Numbered from the stretch's first letter, positions 44,342-56,412 are shown. The stretch is 64,000 bases of DNA from an uncultured Chloroflexia bacterium (GCA_963714675.1 CAVQPG010000003.1:32477-96476), one strand, 5' to 3'. Notes: generated by a model from the sequence alone, not told the origin. Made by a program: numbers and translations.

Positions 44342-45994
44342 TTGCGAACCGCGGAAGCACTGCTGGGTGCGCTGCGTGATGCCGGCGCGAGGGAGATCTT
44401 CGGCATTCCCGGCGACTTTGCGCTGCCACTGTTCGAGGTCATCGAGCGCACGCAGGTGCTGCCCCTCTATACGCTCAGTCACGAGCCGGCGGTCGGCTTC
44501 GCGGCCGACGCCGCGGTGCGCTTCCACGGCGGGCTCGGCGTCGCGGCCATCACCTATGGCGCGGGTGCCTTCAACCTCGTCAACCCCATCGCTGGCGCCT
44601 ACGCCGAGCGCTCACCGGTCGTCGTGCTCTCGGGCGCACCTTCGCTGGCGGAACGGTCTCGCGGTCTGCTCGTGCATCACCAGGCGCGGACCATCGAATC
44701 ACAGCTCAACGTCTACCGCGAGATCACCTGCGACCAGGCCGTGCTCGACGATCCGGCCAGCGCAGCCGGGTCTATCGCCCGCGTCCTGCGCTCCGCCCGC
44801 GAGCACTCCCAGCCGGTCTACCTCGAGATCCCGCGCGACATGGTCGCAGCCGAGATCGGCGAGGTCCCGGTGCTGCCACCCTCCCCGGTCGATCCCGAGG
44901 CGGTCGCGGCCGCCGCCGAGGAAGTGCTGGGGCGCCTGGCAGCGGCCCGCTCACCGGTGCTGGTGGTGGACGCCGAGGTGCGACGCTACGGCGTGGAAGC
45001 GGAGGTGGCGGAGCTGGCCGAGCGCCTGGCGATCCCGGTCGTCACGACGTTCATGGGCCGCGGCCTGCTGGCCGATGCGCCGCATCCCCCGATGGGCACC
45101 TACATCGGCGTGGCCGGCCAGCGCGAGATCACCGAGCTGGTGGAGTCGTCCGACGCCCTGTTCCTGCTGGGCGTGATCCTGAGCGACACGAATTTCAGTG
45201 CAGCCATGCGCGAGATCGACATGCGCCACGCGATCATCGCCGCGGAACGAAAGGTGCGCCTCGGCTTCCATACCTATTCGGAGGTACCGCTGCGCGACCT
45301 CGTGGAAGCCATGGCCGTGGCCGCCCGCCCGAGCGGCACTCGCCCGCAGCTGCCGCAACCACCGGCCCTGCCCTACGGCCTGGCAGCTGACGAGTCACCC
45401 ATCACACCTACCGATATCGCCACCGCTGTCAACGACATGATGCGCGACCACGGCCCGATGCCCATGGCCTCGGACATGGGCGACTGCCTGTTCACGGCCA
45501 TGGATATCGACCAGCACTCGCTGGCCGCTCCCGGCTACTACGCGGGCATGGGCTTCGGCGTACCGGGCGGGCTCGGAGTGCAGGTCGCGACCGGCGAGCG
45601 GCCGCTCATCCTGGTCGGTGACGGCGCCTTCCAGATGACCGGCTGGGAGCTGGGCAACTGCCGCCGCTACGGCTGGGATCCGATCGTCATCGTCTTCAAC
45701 AACGCCTCGTGGGAGATGCTCCGCGCGTTCCAACCCGAGGCCGGCTACAACGACCTGCCCCAGTGGCCATTCCATGAGTTGGCCGACTCGCTGGGCGGCG
45801 TGGGCATCCGCGTGCGCACCCGGCGAGAGCTGGCCGAAGCGCTCGAGCACGCGGTCGCGGACGTCGGACGTTTCGTGCTCATCGACGTGATCATGGAGCG
45901 CGGGCAGGTCTCGAAGACGCTCACTCGTTTCGTCGAGGGCTTCCAGCGGCGGCGAGCACTGGGCCCGGCAGCCGCATCGGTCAAGGAACGGTGA
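44342..45994 (+). CDS. ipdC: Indolepyruvate/phenylpyruvate decarboxylase (TPP-dependent)
   Basis: FGIPGDFALP, HEPAVGFAADA, LLVHHQ, DMGDCLF, GDGAFQMTGWELG and NN.SWEML. Confidence 0.88.
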   Translation: MRTAEALLGALRDAGAREIFGIPGDFALPLFEVIERTQVLPLYTLSHEPAVGFAADAAVRFHGGLGVAAITYGAGAFNLVNPIAGAYAERSPVVVLSGAPSLAERSRGLLVHHQARTIESQLNVYREITCDQAVLDDPASAAGSIARVLRSAREHSQPVYLEIPRDMVAAEIGEVPVLPPSPVDPEAVAAAAEEVLGRLAAARSPVLVVDAEVRRYGVEAEVAELAERLAIPVVTTFMGRGLLADAPHPPMGTYIGVAGQREITELVESSDALFLLGVILSDTNFSAAMREIDMRHAIIAAERKVRLGFHTYSEVPLRDLVEAMAVAARPSGTRPQLPQPPALPYGLAADESPITPTDIATAVNDMMRDHGPMPMASDMGDCLFTAMDIDQHSLAAPGYYAGMGFGVPGGLGVQVATGERPLILVGDGAFQMTGWELGNCRRYGWDPIVIVFNNASWEMLRAFQPEAGYNDLPQWPFHELADSLGGVGIRVRTRRELAEALEHAVADVGRFVLIDVIMERGQVSKTLTRFVEGFQRRRALGPAAASVKER

Positions 45995-46103: not shown

Positions 46104-47330
46104 GTGCCGCCATCCTCTCGCACCATCGATCACCTGCTGCGCTCGTGTGGGGGCCTGGCCATGGTGGCCGCGCTCTGTATCGCCATCCCCGGAACCGCTG
46201 TCGGCGACCCCGGCGAGAGCCCGCAGCCAGGCGCGGCCTCGGCGTGTCTCGCAGGTCCGGACTGGCAGGCTGAGCCGATCGCGCCGGGCATCGACCGGGT
46301 CATCGCCGACGGAGAGGGGCATCGGTTCGACCGCGGACGCGTGCGCGAGGTCGAGATCGGGGCCGACGGCCGTCCGCTGGTTGCCCAGGGCGCTCGCGTG
46401 GCGGTCGTCGGGACCACGGACACCATCGAGCCTCGCTCGAACGATCCGCAGGCGTTCCCTCGACGTCTGAGCCTGGCGCCGACCGGGGAGCTCTGGGCAG
46501 CCGAGGATGGCGGAGCGGCTGTCACTCTCGTCGACGGGCAGTGGCGGGACCGTTCAGCCGCGTTGCGCGGTGTGGGTGCCTCCCTGTCGGTGCTCGACGA
46601 TGGGACCGTGTGGTGGGTCGTGCGAGACGACGACGGCCTGCACCGGGTGGTGTGGCTCGGAGACTCGACCTGGCAGGATGCCAGCGACGAGCGACCGAGC
46701 GTGCTCGCCCGCCAGGGCGCAGCCAGCTACACGTTCGCCAGGACATCCGATGGACGCGTGTGGCTGGGGGTCGACCGCGGAACGCGGCGGGGTGGCCTGG
46801 CCTCGCTCGAGGACGGCGTCTGGACCACGATGGACGACCTCGAAGCCTACGGCGTGGAGCGCGCGCTGAACCTGAGCGTCGGCCCTGATGGCTCACTCTG
46901 GGTGCTGGGAGCAGACCTCGCGGCTCGCCCCGACGGTGCGCTGCTGGCACACCAGGTCGACGACGGTTGGGCCATCCATCCGGTGCCGGTGGACGTGCCC
47001 GACGACGGTTCTGGCGCCTGGATCGGCTGGTCGCCGATGGCCGGCGCGCCGCTGCTGGCTGACGACCAGGAGCGCGTGTGGGCTTCTCCCCCCGGCGCAG
47101 GGCTGTACCTGCTCGAAGGTGAGACGCTCCGACGAATCGAGGCGCGCGGGCTGGGCCTTGGCGCCCAGGACCTCGCGGTCGATGGGCGCGGCTGCCTGTG
47201 GGTCGCGACGCGTCGTGGAGCGCTCTACACCATCGATGCGTTGCTCCTTGACCCTCCCGCCAGCGCAGCCGCATCGCTGCTCGGGCACTACCATGCGGTC
47301 CCGCCATCCACGACCGGAGCGACGCGATGA
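46104..47330 (+). CDS. Secreted beta-propeller-like hypothetical protein (start uncertain)
   Basis: Repeated DG.VW/LW blades; signal-like hydrophobic segment; ATGA overlap with mgtE. Confidence 0.65.
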   Translation: MPPSSRTIDHLLRSCGGLAMVAALCIAIPGTAVGDPGESPQPGAASACLAGPDWQAEPIAPGIDRVIADGEGHRFDRGRVREVEIGADGRPLVAQGARVAVVGTTDTIEPRSNDPQAFPRRLSLAPTGELWAAEDGGAAVTLVDGQWRDRSAALRGVGASLSVLDDGTVWWVVRDDDGLHRVVWLGDSTWQDASDERPSVLARQGAASYTFARTSDGRVWLGVDRGTRRGGLASLEDGVWTTMDDLEAYGVERALNLSVGPDGSLWVLGADLAARPDGALLAHQVDDGWAIHPVPVDVPDDGSGAWIGWSPMAGAPLLADDQERVWASPPGAGLYLLEGETLRRIEARGLGLGAQDLAVDGRGCLWVATRRGALYTIDALLLDPPASAAASLLGHYHAVPPSTTGATR

Positions 47331-48688
47331 CCATCGAAACGGACCGACGATCATGGGAGCACCTGCGTGAGCTGGCGGCCGCCGACGACCGCGCCGGTCT
47401 CGACGCTGTCATCAGCTCGATGGAGCCCAGCGAGGCCATCCGCGCCATCCTGCGACTGGAGCCGGAAGACCAGGAGGCGGTCCTGACCACGCTCTCCCCG
47501 CCCGAGGCTGCCGACATCATCGAGGACGCTCCGGACGAGCAGGCGGCTGACCTCATCGAACACCTGGCCCCGACCGATGCGGCGGCCATCCTCACCGCGA
47601 TGCAGAGCGATGAGCAGGCCGACCTCATCGCCGACCTGGGCAGCGATGAGGCGGCCGCCATCCTCCACGAGATGGACCCGGAGAAGGCCACCGAAGTACG
47701 GGCCATGGCCGACTACGATGACGACATCGCGGGCGGCCTGATGATCACCGAGTTCTCGCAGGTGAGCGAGAACCAGACCGTCGGCGACACGCTGGACCAG
47801 CTCGTGGAGAACGCCGAGGACAGCGACGATCACTTCAGCCGCTACGTCTACGTGCTCTCCCCGCTCGGCCGGCTGGTGGGCGTGGCCGCCGCCAGCACCC
47901 TCGCGGCCGCGCCCCGTTCCTCGCGCGTCGCCGATGTCATGGTGCCCCCGCTGTTCACGGCGCCGACCACGGAGCTTGACGACCTGCGTGAGTTCTTCGA
48001 GGCCCACCCGATCGCGGCGGTGCCGGTCGTCGACCAACGCGGCCGGCTGCTGGGCGTGACCCGCCGCACCGCCGTGCTCGATGCCATCGCCGAGCGTTCG
48101 GAGCGCGAGATGTTGCGGATGCGGGGCATCGTCGGCGGTGACGAAGTGCGTTCGTTGCCCACCTCCACACGCGCCCGCCGTCGGCTCTCGTGGCTGAGCA
48201 TCAACATCGTGCTCAACGTCATCGCCGCCAGCGTCATCGCGCTCTTCATCGACACCCTGGACCAGGTCATCGCGCTGGCGGTCTTCCTGCCCATCATCAG
48301 CGACATGTCGGGCGCCAGCGGCAACCAGGCGGTGGCGGTGAGCATGCGCGAGCTCTCGCTCGGCCTGGTCAAGCCCTACGAGTTGGGGCGGGTCTGGCTC
48401 AAGGAGATCAGCGTCGGCTTCATCAACGGCGTGGCGCTGGGCGTGCTCATCGGCGCGGTGGCCATCCTTTGGGATGGCAGCCCCTGGCTGGGACTCGTCG
48501 TCGGCGTGACCCTGGCGCTCAACACGCTCATCGCGGTCTCCATCGGCGGCACGGTGCCGCTCGCGCTCAAGCGCTTCGGCGTGGATCCGGCGGTAGCTTC
48601 AGGTCCCATCCTCACGACCGCGACGGATATCTGCGGCTTCTTCCTGGCCTTGAGCATGGCCACTATCCTGCTCGCGCAGTTGACCTAG
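47327..48688 (+). CDS. mgtE: Magnesium transporter MgtE
   Basis: Acidic N-domain repeats, AGGLM plus CBS pair, RRRLSWL, P...DMSG..G.Q and DPAVASGP.LTT..D. Confidence 0.94.
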   Translation: MTIETDRRSWEHLRELAAADDRAGLDAVISSMEPSEAIRAILRLEPEDQEAVLTTLSPPEAADIIEDAPDEQAADLIEHLAPTDAAAILTAMQSDEQADLIADLGSDEAAAILHEMDPEKATEVRAMADYDDDIAGGLMITEFSQVSENQTVGDTLDQLVENAEDSDDHFSRYVYVLSPLGRLVGVAAASTLAAAPRSSRVADVMVPPLFTAPTTELDDLREFFEAHPIAAVPVVDQRGRLLGVTRRTAVLDAIAERSEREMLRMRGIVGGDEVRSLPTSTRARRRLSWLSINIVLNVIAASVIALFIDTLDQVIALAVFLPIISDMSGASGNQAVAVSMRELSLGLVKPYELGRVWLKEISVGFINGVALGVLIGAVAILWDGSPWLGLVVGVTLALNTLIAVSIGGTVPLALKRFGVDPAVASGPILTTATDICGFFLALSMATILLAQLT

Positions 48689-48805
48689 CAACGCGAGCGC
48701 GCGCGATAGCGACGCGAGGCCCATGATGGGCCGGACGAGCGCGGCTCACCGCTCACCGGTCGCGGGCCCATCGACGCCTGCCCATGAAGCAAGGAACGAA
48801 TAGAG

Positions 48806-49601
48806 ATGTCATCGCTCATCGCTGAGTTCGCTCAGATCGACCGAGGGCCAGGAGCCCATCGTGGCCACGGCCATCCACGACGGACACGGACTGCGGCCGG
48901 AGGTCAAGGACCTGATGGCGCTCGAGGAGTCGAACCGACTCCGCGAGGAGGATCCGTTCACCGGCATCTGGACCAGCGTGGTCACGACGCAGATGGTGGC
49001 CCTGCGGTCACGCTTCGAGGTCGATCTCAACCGTCCACGCGAAGGCGCGATCTACCGCACGCCTGCTGATGCCTGGGGTCTGCAGGTCTGGCGCGAGGAG
49101 CTGCCTGCCGACGTCATCGAGCGGTCGCTCGAGGAGTACGACGCGTTCTACGCCGAGGCGGAACGGATCTGCTCCGAGCTGGAGCGACGGTATGGGCGCT
49201 TCGTGGTGCTCGACCTGCACACCTACAACTACCGTAGGGGTGGCCCGGATGCGCCTCCGGAGGACCCCAAGGCCAACCCGGAGGTCAATGTCGGCACCGC
49301 CTCGCTCGACCGCGAGCGATGGGGCGGCCTGGTGGATCGATTCATGGGCGACCTGCGCGACCACGAGTTCCTGGGCCGCCATCTCGACGTGCGTGAGAAC
49401 GTCCGCTTCCAGGGTGGCTACCTGTCGCGCTGGGTCCACGAGCGCTACCCCGAATCCGGCTGCTGCCTGGCCATCGAGTTCAAGAAGTTCTTCATGGACG
49501 AGTGGACCGGCAAGCTCTCGCCCGAGGAATACGAGGCCATCCCGCAGGCACTCAAGGCCACGCTGCCCGGCCTGCTCGAGTCCCTCGGCCCTATCGAGTG
49601 A
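48806..49601 (+). CDS. N-formylglutamate amidohydrolase-family protein; 1-nt frameshift near 48846
   Basis: ATAIHDGH, REEDPFT, SRFEVDLNR, LDLHTYN, NVGT, F.GG and AIEFKK. Removing one G joins MSSLIAEFAQIDRG to QEPIVATAIH. Confidence 0.88.
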
Positions 49602-51562
49602 TACGCCCCGGTTCCGCTGTCGGCAGCGCTATCATCGCGCCGCCGACCGAGACGCTCGAGGCGGTCCCGTCTGACCGGGTGGTCGATGCCTTCGTCGAGG
49701 CTGCCTGCGAGCGTGTTCGCGAGGGCAAGCCGCTGCGCCGCAAGCTCAGCCCATGGGGCCGGGTGCACGTCGACCGGCCCCTGCCCTTCGTCATCGTCTA
49801 TCGCAAGCCCGTGCGGCGCGCCGACGATGGCACCGAATCGCTTATCGTGGGTGAAGCCTCCTACGTCATCGGCTTGGGTGCCCGCCGCGCACGAGCCGGC
49901 CTGGCCGCGCTGGTCGAGGGCATCGCCAAGGCCCAGGTGGAGAACTTCGGCTCGTTCCTCATCATCGAGCTGTGGTCCGCGCCCGATTCGGCCCTGCCCG
50001 TCGAGGACGACGCCTGGTCGCCCGGGTTCCGTATCCTGCGCGCGCGGCGAAGCAAGCTCTCGGCCACCATCTCGTCGCTCGAGAACGCGCTCAAGGAGGT
50101 GCGCGTGAAGGGCGCCTTCGCGACGGTCGAGACCCATACCGTGGCCAATATCCGCCCGCCGGGGCTGCCATCGATCATGACCGCCAGCCGCGCGGCCGCG
50201 CTCGGGGTCCATGTCATCGGACTGGAGCTCCAGCCGGCCTTCCGCAACCCCGGCGGGACCGAGGTCTACCCGCTGGTCCACCGCACGCTCCATCGCGGTA
50301 TCTCGCGCGCCTTGAAGCGCGCCGTCTATGACTTCACCCGGCTGCGTACGTCGCACAAGCCGCCGAACTACCTCGCGCTCGGTCGCCACAGCGTGGTCAA
50401 GGCCGTGTGGGACGTGGACCGACGCCTGGCCGGGGTCAGCAGTGCCTTCGATTTCATCCTGCAGGTGACCCCCACCAACGCGGACGCAGCCTGGGCGGAG
50501 TTCCGGCGCAGGCGCTTCGAGGTCGCGCCCGAGTTCACCTCGCGACCATTGCAGATGGATACGGCGCTGGCCAAGCGCGAGCTCTTCAGGATCCCCATCG
50601 AACGCGTCGAGGATCCGACCCTGGCCCAGCTGTTCCGCGAGCAGCAGGTCTCGCTCGACCGCAAGTTGACCATGCTCGGAGATCGCGGCCGCCGCGAGTT
50701 CCTCTACGGCAGCCTGCAGGTCTTCGGCGGCGTGGACGAGCCCTTGCTCAACCTCGCCTACGAGGTGCTCAACCGCGTGCCGTCCCGTACGCGTGGCGAG
50801 TCCAGCCGGGGGGCAGCAGACGCCAAGACGCTGGCCGCGCTGGCCAACAAGGAGCTGGAGTACTACCGGGCGCGATACCCCGACATGACGGGCGGCGTGG
50901 ACATCCGCAACGACGTGGTCGGCGCGATGGTCTCGCGTGGGCGGCTGCTCATCGGCGCGCGCATGAAGGTCCCGACCGCCCGCATCGAGGCCCTGCTGGC
51001 ACACGAGGTGGGCACCCATGTCGTGACCTACGTCAACGGCAAGTCCCAGCCGTTCCGCCAGCTGGCCATCGGCCTGCCCGAGTATGACGAGCTCCAGGAG
51101 GGCCTGGCGGTGTTCTCGGAGTACCTGGTCGGCGGTTTCAGCCGGCCCCGGGTCCGACTCCTGGCAGCTCGGGTCCTGGCCGTTCGCCGCATGCTGGACG
51201 GAGCCGACTTCGTCGAGGTCTTCCGTGAGCTCGACCGAGCCCACGACTTCGAGCAGCGCGTGGCCTTCGGCGTGACCATGCGCGTCTTCCGTGGTGGCGG
51301 ACTGACCAAGGATCTCGTCTATCTGCGAGGCCTCGTGCAGTTGCTGGCGTACCTGCGCGAGGGTGGATCGTTGGACACGCTCTTGGTGGGCAAGCTCGGA
51401 GCCAACCATGTGCCCATCATCGAGGAGTTACAGTGGCGCAAGATCCTGCGTCCCCCACCGCTTCGACCGCGGCATCTTGACGACCCCGAACCGCAAGCAC
51501 GATTACAGGCCGCCCGACAGGGCATGACCGTACTGGACCTGGTCAAGAAAGGAGCAAGATGA
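49598..51562 (+). CDS. DUF1704/'QEGLA motif' zincin metallopeptidase (MATCAP/TMCP-like)
   Basis: HEVGTH zinc motif, LQEGLA..SE, RVFRGG..TKD.VYL.G and GK. GTGA overlap with the upstream gene. Confidence 0.88.
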   Translation: MIRPGSAVGSAIIAPPTETLEAVPSDRVVDAFVEAACERVREGKPLRRKLSPWGRVHVDRPLPFVIVYRKPVRRADDGTESLIVGEASYVIGLGARRARAGLAALVEGIAKAQVENFGSFLIIELWSAPDSALPVEDDAWSPGFRILRARRSKLSATISSLENALKEVRVKGAFATVETHTVANIRPPGLPSIMTASRAAALGVHVIGLELQPAFRNPGGTEVYPLVHRTLHRGISRALKRAVYDFTRLRTSHKPPNYLALGRHSVVKAVWDVDRRLAGVSSAFDFILQVTPTNADAAWAEFRRRRFEVAPEFTSRPLQMDTALAKRELFRIPIERVEDPTLAQLFREQQVSLDRKLTMLGDRGRREFLYGSLQVFGGVDEPLLNLAYEVLNRVPSRTRGESSRGAADAKTLAALANKELEYYRARYPDMTGGVDIRNDVVGAMVSRGRLLIGARMKVPTARIEALLAHEVGTHVVTYVNGKSQPFRQLAIGLPEYDELQEGLAVFSEYLVGGFSRPRVRLLAARVLAVRRMLDGADFVEVFRELDRAHDFEQRVAFGVTMRVFRGGGLTKDLVYLRGLVQLLAYLREGGSLDTLLVGKLGANHVPIIEELQWRKILRPPPLRPRHLDDPEPQARLQAARQGMTVLDLVKKGAR

Positions 51563-52605
51563 AGATCGGCCTCATGGTCAACGACATCGCCACCGAAGAG
51601 CCGGGTTACACCACGACGCGCCTGGGCATGGCTGCCATCAACCGGGGCCACGAGGCCTGGGTCATCGGGGCCGGCGACTTCGCCTACGACGCGGACGAGA
51701 CCGTCCGGGCCCGCGCGACCTCAGCGCCGAAGAAGACGTACAAGTCCTCGGATACGTACGTCAACGACCTCAGGAGCAGGCGGGCAAAGCAGGAACGGAT
51801 CCACGTCGACGAGCTGGACGTGCTGCTCCTGCGCAACGACCCCTCGACCGACCAGGGTGCTCGAGCCTGGGCCCAGTCGTCGGGCATCATCTTCGGGCGC
51901 GTGGCCATGCGCACCGGCCTCATCGTGCTCAACGACCCCAATGGCCTGGCCAAGGCCATGAACAAGATGTACTTCCAGTTCTACCCCGAAGAGGTTCGGC
52001 CGCGCACGATCATCACGCGAGATCGCGACGAGATCAAGGCGTTCTGGAAGGAAGAGGGCGGTCAGATCGTGCTCAAGCCGCTGCAGGGCTCGGGCGGCTC
52101 CGGCGTGTTCCTCGTGCGCAAGGACGACGGGTCCAACCTGAACCAGATGGTCGACGCGGTGAGCCGCGACGGCTACGTCATCGCCCAGGAGTACCTGCCG
52201 GCAGCAGAGGAAGGCGACACCCGCTTGTTCCTCATGAACGGGCAGCCCCTGCGCTACCGCGGCAAGTACGCGGCCTTCCGACGCGTTCGCTCGGGCGACG
52301 ACATGCGCAGCAACATCCATGCCGGGGGCAAGCTGCGGGAGGCGGTCATCACCGATGCACATCTGCGCATCGCCGAGATCGTGCGTCCCAAGGTCGTCCA
52401 GGACGGCATGTTCCTGGTCGGTCTCGACATCGTCGGCGACAAGCTCATGGAGATCAACGTCTTCAGCCCGGGCGGGCTGGGCAGCGCGCAGCGCTTCGAG
52501 AAGGTCAACTTCGCTCACGCCGTCATCGAAGCCCTGGAGCGCAAGGTCGACTACATGAGCTTCTACCGCCGCAACTTCGACAACGTGGACATGGCCACGC
52601 TCTAG
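51559..52605 (+). CDS. gshB: Glutathione synthetase-like (GshB-family) ATP-grasp ligase
   Basis: LLRNDP, VLNDP.GL..A.NK.Y, LKPLQGSGG..VF, QEYLP..GD.R, RSNIHAGG and GLDIVGDKLMEINVFSP.G. ATGA overlap. Confidence 0.8.
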   Translation: MKIGLMVNDIATEEPGYTTTRLGMAAINRGHEAWVIGAGDFAYDADETVRARATSAPKKTYKSSDTYVNDLRSRRAKQERIHVDELDVLLLRNDPSTDQGARAWAQSSGIIFGRVAMRTGLIVLNDPNGLAKAMNKMYFQFYPEEVRPRTIITRDRDEIKAFWKEEGGQIVLKPLQGSGGSGVFLVRKDDGSNLNQMVDAVSRDGYVIAQEYLPAAEEGDTRLFLMNGQPLRYRGKYAAFRRVRSGDDMRSNIHAGGKLREAVITDAHLRIAEIVRPKVVQDGMFLVGLDIVGDKLMEINVFSPGGLGSAQRFEKVNFAHAVIEALERKVDYMSFYRRNFDNVDMATL

Positions 52606-52608
52606 GAC

Positions 52609-53487
52609 ATGCGCTTCGGGATCTGCATCCCCAACTTCCGGCCAGGTACCGACCCCGAGACGATGCTGGCCGCGACCCAGACGTCCGAACGGCTGGGCTG
52701 GCACTCGGCCTTCGCCACCGACCACGTCCTCGTCGACGGTGCGGAGCGCGGGAAGGACTACCGTCATATCTACGAGGCGCTCGCGAGCGTGGCCTGGCTG
52801 GCGGGGCAGACCACCTCGATCCGCCTGGGTATGAGCGTGCTGGTGGTGCCGATGCGGAACGCGCTCGTGCTGGCCAAGGAACTGGCCACCATCGACGCCC
52901 TCTCCGGGGGCCGGCTCATCGCCGGGGTCGGCATCGGCTGGAACCGTGTCGAGTTCGAGAGCCTGGGCGTGGGCGACCGGTTCGCCCATCGTGGCGTGTA
53001 CCTGGAGGAGACCATCGCCCTCTGGCGTCATCTCTGGGCCGGAGGTGAGGGACCGTACGACGGTCGGTTCGACAGCTTCGAGGAGGCCTACTTCTCCCCG
53101 CTCCCGCCACAGGGCGCCGACCTGCCCATCTGGATCGGGGCCACGGCTGAGCCGGCACTGATCCGCAGCGGACGGATCGCGGACGGCTACCACGCCACCG
53201 GTGCCGATGCTGCGACCATGCGCGAACGTGTGCGGGTGGTGGGCGAGGCAGCGACCGCCGCAGGTCGGCCCATGCCTACCGTCTCGGCTCGCCTGCGTGT
53301 CGACTTCGCCGGCAAGCGCAAGGGCCCCTCGATCCTCAGCGGCACGCCCGCCGAGATGGGGGCCGCCGTCCGCGACTTCGCAACGGCTGGCACCGACCAC
53401 CTGGCGCTCGACTTCGGCGAAACCGATCCGGATATGGCAGCCAGGGCCATCGAGCGCTTCGACCGCGAGGTCCTGCCTGCGATCTAG
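52609..53487 (+). CDS. LLM-class F420-dependent oxidoreductase (Rv2161c-like)
   Basis: TDHV, LAKELATIDALSGGR..GVGIGW..EF and PIWIG. Confidence 0.88.
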   Translation: MRFGICIPNFRPGTDPETMLAATQTSERLGWHSAFATDHVLVDGAERGKDYRHIYEALASVAWLAGQTTSIRLGMSVLVVPMRNALVLAKELATIDALSGGRLIAGVGIGWNRVEFESLGVGDRFAHRGVYLEETIALWRHLWAGGEGPYDGRFDSFEEAYFSPLPPQGADLPIWIGATAEPALIRSGRIADGYHATGADAATMRERVRVVGEAATAAGRPMPTVSARLRVDFAGKRKGPSILSGTPAEMGAAVRDFATAGTDHLALDFGETDPDMAARAIERFDREVLPAI

Positions 53488-53527
53488 CGGGCTCGCATGC
53501 CGGTCGTGCTCCGCCACCTGCCTGTCA

Positions 53528-53710
53528 GGCACGTAGGCACGTGGCTGCCGGGCACGTAAGCACAGGCCGCCGGGCACCTAAGCACAAGGCTGCCGGGCGC
53601 GGAGGCACGAGGCTGCCGGGCGCGGAGGCACGAGGCTGCCGGGCACGTAGGCACGTGGCTGCCGGGCACGTAGGCACTTGCCCCCCAGGCACGTATCGCA
53701 CGTGCTAGAC
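53528..53710. repeat. About 8 degenerate tandem 23-bp repeats, consensus GGCACGTAGGCACGNGGCTGCCG
   Basis: Units start at 53528, 53551, 53573, 53596, 53619, 53642, 53665 and 53688. No spacers. Confidence 0.85.
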
Positions 53711-53801
53711 GAACCAGAGCGCACTGCCATGCGTGTCAGTCATGTCTCCGGTGCTGAGGGCAGGTCCTATGACTGCGAAGCACGAGGAAGACCGAACCGG
53801 T

Positions 53802-53826
53802 CCCGGCACGTCCACTACGTGCCGGG
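53802..53826. other. Perfect 10-bp hairpin; its left arm and loop are repeated at 53863-53877
   Basis: CCCGGCACGT-ccact-ACGTGCCGGG; second copy CCCGGCACGTCCACT. Confidence 0.7.
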
Positions 53827-53955
53827 CAGACAAGTCCGCGGCCAAGGTGCGGCGGCGCACGCCCCGGCACGTCCACTCGCGCCTGCCACGTTCGCAACGG
53901 CGGTCGCCGTACACTGCGGGAGGCCGGCGACGACGGGTAGCGAACGGAGGGGTCG

Positions 53956-56412
53956 ATGAGGTTCGGACGGTTCGATGACGCACGGCGGGAATATGTCATC
54001 ACGCGGCCGGACACGCCCCTGCCCTGGATCAACTATCTCGGCTCGGAAGACTATCTCGGGCTCATCTCCAACACCGCCGGGGGCTACTCGTTCTACCAGG
54101 ACGCGCGCCTTCGCCGCCTGACCCGCTACCGCTACAACAACGCCCCCCTCGATATCGGCGGCCGCTACGTCTACGTACGTGACGACGACTCCGGTGTCTA
54201 CTGGAGTCCCAGCTGGCAACCAGTGGGCCGCGAGGTGGACGACTACGAGTGCCGACACGGTATGGGCTACACCACGATCGGCTCAGGCACCGCGGGAATC
54301 CACACCGAGACCACGTACTTCGTGCCGGTCGGCGAGAACCTCGAGGTCTGGCGCTCCCGAGTGACCAACGAGCGCCGAGCCGCGGCCAGCCTCTCGCTCT
54401 TCAGCGCGATCGAATGGTGCCTCTGGGACGCCAACGACGATGCCACCAACTTCCAGCGCAACTACTCCATCGGCGAGGTCGAGGTCGAAGACGGCGTGAT
54501 CTTCCACAAGACCGAGTACCGCGAACGCCGGGACCACTTCGCCTGGTTCGCCTGCAGCGAGGAGCTCGCCGGCTTCGACACCGGGCGCGACGACTTCCTG
54601 GGTCCATACCGAGGCTGGGACCGCCCCCTCGCGGTGGCAGAGGGACGTGCCCGTGACTCCATCGCCCACGGCTGGCAGCCCATCGGCTCGCATCACGTCC
54701 GTTTCGAGCTGGCGCCGGGCGAGACGCGCGAGCTGATCTTCGTCCTTGGCTACGCCGAGAACCCGGCCGCCGCCAAGTTCGACCCGCCGGGATCGCAGAC
54801 CATCGACAAGACACGCGTTCGGCCGCTGATCGCGAAGTACACCTCCAGCAGTGCTGTCGAGGAAGCTCTCGCGGACCTCCGCGGGCACTGGGACGAGCTG
54901 CTCGGCAGGTTCCAGGCGCAGACCCCCAACGAGCACCTCGATCGCATGGTCAACACCTGGAACGCCTACCAGTGCATGGTCACCTTCAACCTCAGTCGCT
55001 CGGCCTCGATGTTCGAGTCGGGCATCGGCCGGGGCATGGGCTTCCGCGACTCCAACCAGGACCTGCTCGGCTTCGTGCACATGATCCCCGAGCGTGCTCG
55101 GCAGCGGATCCTCGACATCAGCGCGACCCAGCTGCCCTCCGGTGGCGCCTACCACCAGTACCAGCCGCTGACCAAACGCGGCAATGACGCGGTCGGCAGC
55201 GGCTTCAACGACGATCCCGCCTGGCTGGTCCTCGGCGTGGCCGCCTATCTGCGAGAGACAGGCGACACGTCCATCCTCGATGAGCCGGTTCCGTTCGACA
55301 ACGAGCCAGGCTCGGAAGCGCCGCTGTACCAGCATCTCGTGCGTGCGATCGAGTACACGCTCGACCGCCTGGGCCCCCATGGGCTGCCGCTCATCGGCCG
55401 GGCCGACTGGAACGACTGTCTCAACCTCAACTGCTTCAGTGAGACCCCCGGCGAGGCCTTCCAGACCACCGAGAACAAGGCGGGGGGCGTGGCCGAATCG
55501 GTCTTCATCGCCGCACTCTTCACGCTGGCCGTACAGGAGATGCGGGAGATCGCCGCGTTGCGGCGCGACAGCGTCTTCGGGCTGCGCTGCGGCCAGGCCC
55601 ACGATGACATGGTGGCCGCGGTCGATGCCCACGGCTGGGACGGGGCCTGGTTCCGCCGCGCCTACGACTTCTACGGGAACGTGATCGGCTCCGCGGAGAA
55701 CCAGGAGGGCCAGATCTTCATCGAACCGCAGGGCATCGCCATCATGGCCGGGCTCGGCACCGGCGATGGACGCGCGGAAACGACCCTCGCCTCTGTCCGC
55801 GAACGCCTGGCCACCGAGCACGGACTCGTGCTCCTGCAGCCGGCGTTCAGCCGCTACTACCCCGAGCTCGGCGAGATCTCCTCGTACCCGCCCGGCTACA
55901 AGGAGAACGGGGGCATCTTCTGTCACACCAACCCCTGGCTGATGCTGGCCGAGGCGACCGTGGGCAACGGGGACGGCGCGCTCGACTACTACCTGCGCAT
56001 CAACCCTTCGGCACGCGAGGATATCTCCGAGATCCATCGCTGCGAGCCCTACGTCTATGCCCAGATGATCGCGGGCATGGACGCTCCGAAACACGGCGAG
56101 GCCAAGAATTCATGGCTGACTGGCACCGCCGCCTGGAATTTCGTGGCAGCCACACAGGGCATCCTCGGCATCCGGCCCGAGCACGACGGCTTGCGCGTAG
56201 ATCCGGCGCTCCCGGCCGACTGGGATGGGTTCGGCGTCACCCGCCGCTTCCGGGGCACGACCTACCGCATCACCGTCGAGAAGCCGGTCGGCGCGACGGG
56301 ACGGGTGACCGCGCTCGAGGTCGACGGGACGATGGTCTCGGGCAACCTGATCCCGCTGCCGTCCCGGGCGGGCCGTATCGTCGAGGTCAGGGCACGCATC
56401 GGGGGTGACTGA
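53956..56412 (+). CDS. GH94 glycoside phosphorylase, cellobiose phosphorylase-like
   Basis: MRFGRFDD..REYVI..P.TP.PWINYLG, RLTRYRYN, GRGMGFRDSNQD, ADWNDCLNL (catalytic Asp), KENGGIFCH and NSWLTGTA. Confidence 0.92.
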   Translation: MRFGRFDDARREYVITRPDTPLPWINYLGSEDYLGLISNTAGGYSFYQDARLRRLTRYRYNNAPLDIGGRYVYVRDDDSGVYWSPSWQPVGREVDDYECRHGMGYTTIGSGTAGIHTETTYFVPVGENLEVWRSRVTNERRAAASLSLFSAIEWCLWDANDDATNFQRNYSIGEVEVEDGVIFHKTEYRERRDHFAWFACSEELAGFDTGRDDFLGPYRGWDRPLAVAEGRARDSIAHGWQPIGSHHVRFELAPGETRELIFVLGYAENPAAAKFDPPGSQTIDKTRVRPLIAKYTSSSAVEEALADLRGHWDELLGRFQAQTPNEHLDRMVNTWNAYQCMVTFNLSRSASMFESGIGRGMGFRDSNQDLLGFVHMIPERARQRILDISATQLPSGGAYHQYQPLTKRGNDAVGSGFNDDPAWLVLGVAAYLRETGDTSILDEPVPFDNEPGSEAPLYQHLVRAIEYTLDRLGPHGLPLIGRADWNDCLNLNCFSETPGEAFQTTENKAGGVAESVFIAALFTLAVQEMREIAALRRDSVFGLRCGQAHDDMVAAVDAHGWDGAWFRRAYDFYGNVIGSAENQEGQIFIEPQGIAIMAGLGTGDGRAETTLASVRERLATEHGLVLLQPAFSRYYPELGEISSYPPGYKENGGIFCHTNPWLMLAEATVGNGDGALDYYLRINPSAREDISEIHRCEPYVYAQMIAGMDAPKHGEAKNSWLTGTAAWNFVAATQGILGIRPEHDGLRVDPALPADWDGFGVTRRFRGTTYRITVEKPVGATGRVTALEVDGTMVSGNLIPLPSRAGRIVEVRARIGGD

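Follow-up and report, generated by a model that had tools for sequence, protein, structure and literature searches.

Here we describe a three-gene module that lies at positions 48806-52605, on the plus strand, of a 64,000-nucleotide stretch of DNA from an uncultured Chloroflexia bacterium (GCA_963714675.1, CAVQPG010000003.1:32477-96476; this whole stretch is hereafter called the window). The module encodes a stand-alone metal hydrolase of the N-formylglutamate-amidohydrolase-like (FGase) family, a zincin whose C-terminal domain is predicted to adopt the MATCAP fold, and a GshB-like ATP-grasp ligase that, judged by its sequence, is not a glutathione synthase. The three genes form a widely conserved, horizontally mobile three-enzyme unit. 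A new result is that the long N-terminal region of the zincin appears to be a cryptic FGase homologue. We assign a probability of roughly 45% to the reading in which the enzymes of the module make and shorten a small acidic peptide that is linked to ion or osmotic balance.

The window is part of contig C3 of genome G000 (3.16 Mb in 25 contigs, 80.7% complete) and has a G+C content of 67-71% over its whole length. A first-pass annotation had read the locus as a system for adding and removing amino acids at the end of a protein or peptide, encoded by three translationally coupled genes for an N-formylglutamate-amidohydrolase-type enzyme, a DUF1704 zincin with a HEVGTH..QEGLA motif, and an intact ATP-grasp ligase. 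These gene assignments were borne out in the analyses below, as was the coupling: stop and start codons overlap at both junctions, in GTGA at 49598-49601 (gene 1 stop and gene 2 GTG start) and in ATGA at 51559-51562 (gene 2 stop and gene 3 ATG start).

The three genes are conserved together in many phyla

Searching the library by phmmer with the zincin gave 2902 relatives at E ≤ 1e-3, 626 of them at E ≤ 1e-30. The best 150 relatives were nearly all 600-660 amino acids (aa) long, so the long zincin represents a large family and is no oddity. A locus scan with one genome per species yielded at least 581 encoding stretches; the locus counts given here rest on the best 80, which carry about 16 phylum-level names, as counted from record titles and tree labels. 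The ligase was present at 75 of these 80 loci and the FGase at 66, and all three genes occurred together at 64. The first-pass annotation had named a lack of co-conservation as grounds for rejecting its proposal; the counts show the opposite.

At 54 of the 80 loci, the genes lie on one strand in the order seen in the window, FGase-zincin-ligase. Linkage is kept in three other arrangements: zincin-ligase-FGase (4 loci), a zincin convergent with FGase and ligase (5 loci, all in Actinomycetota), and a distant ligase, found once, 3.4 kb away on the opposite strand. Among the five loci that lack a ligase, two have contigs ending within 140 nucleotides (nt) of the zincin, and a third has 127 nt upstream and 1.7 kb downstream.

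Within the genus, PF08014, the Pfam family of the zincin, was detected in 9 of the 25 genomes searched, including G000 (8 of the 24 others). The long form accompanied by both partners was present in five of the 25 (G000, G012, G013, G020 and G021). Four genomes instead have a short DUF1704 form, with an open frame of about 430-440 aa and neither partner within 9 kb. These short paralogues (L016-L019, in G023, G009, G008 and G001) score 350-361 bits against PF08014, higher than the long form, and constitute a second, partner-less subfamily.

The nearest neighbour of the window ligase in the ligase tree comes from a metagenome-assembled genome of Acidobacteriota and is 78% identical to it. Because the tree is discordant with taxonomy, we conclude that the module moves horizontally. 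Identities to the window in tblastn were 47-78% for the ligase, 45-60% for the zincin C-terminal domain and 30-45% for the zincin N-terminal domain; the ligase is thus the best-conserved part of the module. Six loci (L030, L040, L058, L061, L029 and L032) carry two or three tandem ligase paralogues, which fall into three distinct old subclades common to several genera of Planctomycetota. At two of these, L040 and L058, a second long zincin lies between the ligase copies.

The ligase resembles GshB and is apparently not a glutathione synthase

Gene 3 (51559..52605, plus strand) encodes a 348-aa protein that matched the two GshB domain families PF02955 (E 3.8e-50) and PF02951 (E 2.6e-11). It belongs to the NF009110 (PRK12458) subfamily, with 486.5 bits against a cut-off of 408 and coverage of positions 1-348 of 349. 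By contrast, its scores against both GshB equivalog models were below the cut-offs (215.6 vs 272 for NF003573; 199.7 vs 299.05 for TIGR01380). Among PDB sequences, it matched E. coli GshB (1gsa) with an E value of 7.4e-39, and scored 137 bits against GshB vs 34 against RimK. Matches to RimK were weak (PF08443, E 2.8e-13; RimK in the PDB, E 1e-7) and lay under the RimK cut-offs (71.6 vs 143.4 for TIGR00768; 33 vs 331 for NF007764). The MptN and LysX models also gave weak matches.

The catalytic apparatus of the ligase appears intact from the alignment. Residues K136, K173, D290, E298 and N300 align with K125, K160, D273, E281 and N283 of E. coli GshB, and the sites aligned to GshB R86, K125, K160, R210, R225, R233, N235, D273, E281 and N283 are invariant or at least 90% conserved across 65 members of the family, whose mean column identity is 70%. 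We take these positions to be the nucleotide-, Mg- and carboxylate-binding residues of GshB.

The ligase gene is the only GSH-S_ATP gene in G000. A gshA gene of either type (PF04262 or PF04107) was not found in this genome, which at 80.7% completeness does not prove its absence; nor was urocanase (PF01175), so no histidine-utilisation context was seen. The first-pass annotation had noted no gshA or hut gene in the window; gshA and urocanase were not detected elsewhere in the assembly either. In two of five other module genomes, both gammaproteobacterial, a true GshB (456 and 454 bits) is encoded at a separate place; the remaining three have module-type ligases alone, at about 200 bits.

We also placed 75 ligases in a maximum-likelihood tree, a comparison that the first-pass annotation had called for. 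Seventy module ligases formed one clade (SH-aLRT 99), apart from two true GshB proteins, two ligases of the variant described below (variant B), and a RimK-like outgroup; this was a quick search with few outgroup rows and long branches. Given the scores below the equivalog cut-offs, the separate clade, the lack of a detected gshA, and the coexistence with true GshB, the ligase is most readily classified as something other than a glutathione synthase, in agreement with what had been proposed.

The C-terminal domain of the zincin has a predicted MATCAP fold

Gene 2 encodes 654 aa, counted from GTG 49598. Its C-terminal domain (50417..51562, plus strand) is a gluzincin domain of the MATCAP family (DUF1704/TIGR02421 'QEGLA'), matching PF08014 MATCAP with an E value of 2.2e-87 (293.9 bits vs a cut-off of 27) and TIGR02421 with 344 bits (cut-off 338.65), the latter match starting at residue 274. 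The HEVGTH motif occupies residues 469-474 (nt 51002-51019) and the QEGLA motif residues 500-504 (nt 51095-51109). None of the residues H469, E470, H474 and E501 varies among 54 long-form homologues.

The AlphaFold2 (AF2) model of this domain had a pLDDT of 94.2. In a Foldseek search, which the first-pass annotation had suggested, the best PDB match was human MATCAP (7z5g; E 6e-8; TM-score 0.61 by query and 0.69 by target; 19% identity). The next family followed at E 4e-4, and MATCAP stood well above the DUF885 and M32 carboxypeptidases. The sequences could also be compared directly by phmmer (E 1.3e-4 to 7z5g), in which the HExxxH motif and the EGLA glutamate aligned with the human motif. The model and these matches indicate a MATCAP fold, and the alignment points to an intact, MATCAP-type HExxxH...E zinc site.

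The N-terminal domain of the zincin is a probable degenerate FGase-fold domain

The first-pass annotation had remarked on an extra N-terminal region of about 250 aa in the zincin. The region is present, spanning residues 1-273 (49598..50416, plus strand), and gave no Pfam match at E ≤ 10; rather than an unexplained extra, it appears to be a degenerate domain of FGase/M14 fold. An AF2 model built from a 67-row alignment had a pLDDT of 88.5 and a pTM of 0.81. The top structural match in VIA-align was the FGase 2q7s (Z 14.1; 186 residues aligned with a root-mean-square deviation of 4.1 Å), followed by the FGase-family structure 2odf (Z 12.1), by M14 carboxypeptidases (Z 10-11), and then by other members of the clan, including PghP (3a9l, Z 9.8), YndL (5onj, Z 9.5) and CphZ (8ein, Z 8.7). 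Foldseek also listed 2q7s (E 6e-5). In an HHalign comparison with the stand-alone FGase family, the domain aligned over 167 columns with a probability of 88.6% (E 2.6e-6).

In this alignment, the invariant FGase residues D118 and H120 face E124 and W126 of the zincin, and the N-terminal H6/H9 and E29-E30-D31 motifs of the FGase have no counterpart. We infer that the domain is an FGase paralogue that has either lost its catalytic activity or been put to another use; it is probably non-catalytic. A prediction of its complex with the stand-alone FGase scored 0.01, the mark being 0.32, and speaks neither for nor against an interaction.

Two fused forms support an FGase-paralogue history for this domain. 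Variant B, found in a Colwelliaceae isolate (L114, 5771-8789, minus strand), consists of a 345-aa GshB-like ligase and a 665-aa FGase-MATCAP fusion, in which Pfam identified both the FGase domain (E 1.1e-17) and the MATCAP domain (E 9.6e-94). At L067 (7134-9809, plus strand; metagenome-assembled genome of an uncultured bacterium), the stand-alone FGase is fused in frame to a long zincin in a protein of 891 aa; this fusion could be real, or a stop codon could have been lost in assembly. In L114, a tandem-CBS protein gene and a peroxiredoxin-like gene precede variant B, and the same genome has a window-type zincin-ligase pair without the FGase (L084) and a true gshB.

Gene 1 is most likely intact in the population

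Gene 1 (48806..49601, plus strand) encodes the stand-alone FGase-family hydrolase. It matched PF05013 FGase with an E value of 2.3e-17 (64.3 bits; gathering cut-off 28.9) and no NCBIfam model. Across 58 homologues 32 columns are invariant, among them H6, E29-E30-D31, D55, N57, R58, D118 and H120, and these family invariants are intact in gene 1. Searched against PDB sequences, the profile of the stand-alone family reached only E 0.83 at best, to 2odf, and the single gene 1 sequence gave no match. G000 has a second, more canonical FGase-family gene (G000:C11:97818-98480, L116; 174.6 bits), though urocanase was not found.

An AAGGAA sequence lies 8 nt ahead of ATG 48806. In the window as given, this ATG is out of frame with the FGase open reading frame (ORF), which opens at GTG 48861 and runs over 48861-49601 (246 aa), an extra base at 48839 shifting the frame 11 codons into the gene. 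Four congeneric loci (L015, L020, L021 and L022) read in a single frame throughout, MSSLI...EGQEPIVATAIH. The base at 48839 is missing from every covering contig of two DNA sequencing runs from different studies (X1, two contigs; X5, one contig). An error of assembly is thus the likeliest source of the frame break, and in the population gene 1 most likely starts at 48806 and encodes about 264 aa without interruption. Gene 2 has two candidate start codons, GTG 49598 and GTG 49679, of which the former is favoured because conservation begins at residue 6 in two congeners.

The module often lies near genes for ion transport

To describe the neighbourhood, flanking ORFs of the 80 loci and of the window (n = 81) were clustered, and the recurrent clusters were annotated with Pfam. 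Mg2+ transporters of three families were encoded near the module, MgtE at 8 loci (the window included), CNNM/CorC at 7 and CorA at 5, with any of them at 17 of 81. Channels of the MscS family occurred at 15 of 81 loci; either a Mg2+ transporter or an MscS channel was present at 22, and both at 10. By chance about 2 of 81 loci would be expected, on the basis of some 5 Mg2+/MscS genes per 3.16 Mb in G000 and about 10 kb of flanking sequence; since this base rate comes from one genome alone, the enrichment can be given only roughly.

In the window, an MgtE-type Mg2+ transporter gene (47327..48688, plus strand; Pfam MgtE, MgtE_N and CBS) precedes gene 1 on the same strand, with a gap of 117 nt. 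MgtE lies directly upstream in three of the five congeneric module genomes (the window, L015 and L021), and at L038 an MgtE gene sits between zincin and ligase. MgtE is a recurrent neighbour of the module and no core part of it. Other recurrent neighbours include K+ channels with an RCK domain (3 loci), SLC12-type carriers (3), CitMHS/TrkA-C anion carriers (5), HSP20 (3), isoaspartyl methyltransferases (4), Ddl-like ATP-grasp proteins (3) and sigma-54 activators (8). Among the neighbours at the 80 loci, there was no conserved ORF that could encode a substrate, and no recurrent tailoring or biosynthetic gene.

We scanned a 300-nt stretch ahead of the leading module gene at 55 of the 80 loci, those opened by the FGase or the zincin. 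Sigma-54-type -24/-12 sites were found at 7 of the 55, at a distance of 41-274 nt, where about 0.8 would be expected. Loci with such sites, mostly from Planctomycetota and Myxococcota, include L038 (2828) and L097 (6838); PAS-sigma54 activator genes lie near 8 loci. The strict sigma-54 motif did not occur in the window. Rfam gave no family at gathering score over the whole window, and hence no M-box or other riboswitch, and a scan of 47000-54000 for sigma-70 promoters and terminators found none.

Contigs from two RNA libraries (X16 and X18) match parts of mgtE, the zincin gene and the ligase gene exactly or almost exactly, covering small shares of the stretch. We did not count them as proof of transcription, since DNA carry-over is possible, and a lack of RNA contigs over other parts carries no meaning. 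For related loci, the literature offers two observations. In Photobacterium damselae, a published study lists adjacent genes for a 'GshB' (RS17020) and a QEGLA protein (RS17025) as up 38.4-fold and 27.5-fold, respectively, at 1% NaCl (PMC10308900). In Vibrio vulnificus, a COG3930 gene adjoins a 'glutathione synthetase' gene and both are clade-specific, according to PMC3091676.

Other features around the module

A gene for an F420-dependent LLM-class oxidoreductase (52609-53487, plus strand; TIGR03619, 179.4 bits vs a cut-off of 166.9) begins 3 nt past the ligase stop codon. We considered it as a fourth module gene and rejected it: in L015 its homologue, 76% identical, lies upstream of mgtE, so the tight spacing to the ligase is local, and at the other congeneric loci the gene is absent. 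A GH94 cellobiose/chitobiose-phosphorylase-type gene (53956-56412, plus strand) and a thiamine-diphosphate enzyme gene (44342-45994, plus strand) are ordinary neighbours, unrelated to the module.

Just past the mgtE stop codon, 74 nt before gene 1, there is a perfect palindrome, GGCCCATGATGGGCC (48718-48732), which the congener L015 has unchanged and L021 has in degraded form. It might act as an operator or form a small hairpin; the Rfam search called no family and the terminator scan no terminator-like site at this place. Contigs of other organisms, from metagenomes and metatranscriptomes, stack on 49467-49515, which encodes the FGase EFKKFFMDEWTG motif, and on 52271-52606, which encodes the C-terminal core of the ligase. 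The summed contig depth at these two places reaches 74-123, compared with 5-10 elsewhere; many sediment organisms therefore have near-identical DNA for the two motifs.

Discussion

By family membership, the module combines a PRK12458 ligase, a PF08014/TIGR02421 peptidase and a PF05013 enzyme, and in the literature library searched no paper was found that gives this bacterial module a function. The closest formal parallel is the tubulin tail cycle, in which the ligases TTL/TTLL are opposed by MATCAP/TMCP1-2 (KIAA0895L, KIAA0895; 7z5g, 7z6s). There, too, an ATP-grasp ligase has a PF08014 HExxxH...E gluzincin as its counterpart, and the C-terminal domain from the window, with its predicted MATCAP fold, has MATCAP as its top PDB match. 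TMCPs strip single C-terminal residues sequentially, glutamates included, according to PMC10499314. The two systems also differ: the module ligase is GshB-like and not TTL-like, the window zincin is only about 19% identical to MATCAP, and the module, found in bacteria, which lack the substrate of the eukaryotic enzymes, has no tubulin or other gene for a conserved protein substrate. It adds an FGase-family hydrolase and an FGase-fold N-terminal domain, and its operon has ion-transport neighbours.

With E. coli GshB (1gsa, 2glt), the module ligase shares two Pfam domains, the aligned arginines and the positions for nucleotide and Mg, as well as the region of the flexible loop. It differs in an insertion of about 20-30 aa in its N-terminal domain (about query residues 47-80), in having no gshA partner, in scoring below the equivalog cut-offs, in branching as a clade of its own whose members occur alongside true GshB, and in its linkage to two hydrolases. 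In Pseudomonas and E. coli, the ATP-grasp alpha-L-glutamate ligase RimK, which acts on ribosomal protein S6, is co-encoded with an opposing peptidase, RimB; RimK also polymerises glutamate. In contrast, the module ligase matches RimK weakly, its opposing peptidase has another fold, and no link to rpsF was seen. The cyanophycin (CphA, cyanophycinase, CphZ) and poly-gamma-glutamate (PghP, YndL) systems combine a ligase with chain-shortening and last-bond hydrolases, as we propose for the module, whose ligase, however, has no Mur-ligase domain. CphZ, PghP and YndL have an FGase/M14-like fold in common with the zincin N-terminal domain, although such fold matches are generic to the clan. The module would work like a writer-eraser pair of the TTL/TTLL-MATCAP or RimK-RimB type and is a member of none of these systems.

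In the mechanism that we favour, the ligase would activate a carboxylate as an acyl phosphate and then add an amino acid, in the manner of GshB; ATP would be spent on joining an acidic amino acid that is abundant in the cell, with glutamate as the likeliest, to a small carboxylate acceptor. At loci with two or three paralogous ligases, a short peptide might be assembled stepwise. The MATCAP-like enzyme would trim the C-terminus of the product, removing single residues in turn like the TMCPs, and the FGase-like enzyme would cut the final N-acyl-glutamate-type bond. Acting together, the three enzymes would set the level of a small acidic peptide, and thereby the number of osmotically active anions that pair with Mg2+ and K+ when the ionic conditions change or the osmolarity falls. 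The main anion of the cytoplasm is glutamate; for this reason, and because the neighbouring genes handle Mg2+, K+ and hypo-osmotic release, an acidic peptide is favoured as the product. We counted the ion-gene neighbours for the ion and osmotic part of this reading, together with the low-salt induction that has been published for Photobacterium.

Several observations weigh against this mechanism. The chemistry of the module is read from family resemblance alone. According to PMC10499314, enzymes of the MATCAP family are known on protein tails only. An operon that encodes both a synthetic and a hydrolytic activity should be regulated in some way, and no such regulation was found. The association with ion genes is seen at a minority of loci (22 of 81), with a chance level taken from the gene density of one genome. 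Two loci with full flanks, L046 and L072, have a zincin with neither partner. The Photobacterium pair, known from published annotation alone, may be of the window variant or of the fused variant. Finally, the conservation of the ligase, up to 78% identity across phyla, could equally fit a conserved macromolecular partner.

This last point bears on a less likely but serious alternative, in which the ligase adds residues at the acidic C-terminal end of some widely conserved protein and the MATCAP-like peptidase erases them. Very high conservation (70% mean column identity) is expected where an enzyme has to dock on a macromolecule that is itself conserved, and the zincin seems to combine the MATCAP fold with the catalytic motif of relatives that strip single C-terminal residues sequentially from proteins (PMC10499314). 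The weak RimK matches of the ligase (PF08443 and RimK in the PDB) fit this alternative as well, although by score the ligase is far nearer GshB than RimK (137 vs 34 bits; 71.6 against a TIGR00768 cut-off of 143.4), and it retains the GshB loop region. Furthermore, no conserved candidate substrate gene was found at the 80 loci, the neighbours are transporters and channels and not ribosomal or cytoskeletal genes, and the family of the third enzyme is named after a small N-acyl-amino-acid substrate. On balance, the evidence favours a small solute over a protein tail of the tubulin kind, because the ligase keeps the GshB arginines and closing loop, because the module has no conserved substrate gene and lies among transporters and channels, and because the tandem ligase paralogues occupy distinct old subclades.

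A small product need not be related to ion balance. It might be a metabolite of the N-acyl-glutamate type, the tail of a cofactor, or a dipeptide natural product accompanied by hydrolases for recycling or self-protection, the channels and transporters nearby being there for import or export or by coincidence. The ATP-grasp family includes dipeptide and cofactor-tail ligases, and the weak MptN and LysX matches are in line with this; CitMHS/TrkA-C carriers (5 loci) and ABC neighbours could carry the product; and the patchy distribution in the genus (5 of 25 genomes) and the discordance between tree and phylogeny are as in accessory metabolism. Nonetheless, we judge this explanation unlikely: no tailoring or biosynthetic genes recur, Mg2+ transporters of three unrelated families and MscS would be odd exporters, and the related Photobacterium pair was induced at low salt in the published study. 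The names in databases would make gene 3 a GshB and gene 1 a HutG in a coincidental neighbourhood. They derive from NF009110 ('glutathione synthetase') and PF05013, and, in two papers, PRK12458 is counted as GshB or the Photobacterium gene is named GshB (PMC3462692, PMC10308900). We regard this reading as largely refuted and very improbable, since the ligase falls below both equivalog cut-offs, the ligases of the module branch apart from true GshB, which is encoded next to module-type ligases in other genomes' own separate loci, and all three genes occur together at 64 of 80 loci; in G000, at 80.7% completeness, neither gshA nor urocanase was found.

Returning to the build-and-trim mechanism, a wider version can be imagined. 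In many phyla, an ATP-driven cycle that builds and trims a short, oligo-glutamate-type peptide might rapidly buffer the number of osmolytes in the cytoplasm and the counter-ions Mg2+ and K+; the MATCAP peptidase and its ATP-grasp partner might be prokaryotic forerunners of the eukaryotic tubulin tail 'code', and the dead FGase domain a relic of an ancestral double hydrolase. We consider this extension doubtful.

Public annotation labels the genes of the module as glutathione and histidine metabolism, and at least two papers (PMC3462692, PMC10308900) take such naming at face value. To this picture the window adds a cryptic FGase N-terminal domain, contig evidence on the frameshift in gene 1, and a test of whether true GshB coexists with the module. 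Some carriers are in culture: the 80 loci include Pontibacter and an isolate of the Colwelliaceae, and Vibrionaceae can be added according to published annotation. The neighbouring genes and the low-salt induction point to conditions worth trying in such organisms. If the module does act on a small acidic peptide, or on a protein tail, it would represent a new and widespread bacterial physiology and would provide the first function for prokaryotic relatives of MATCAP.

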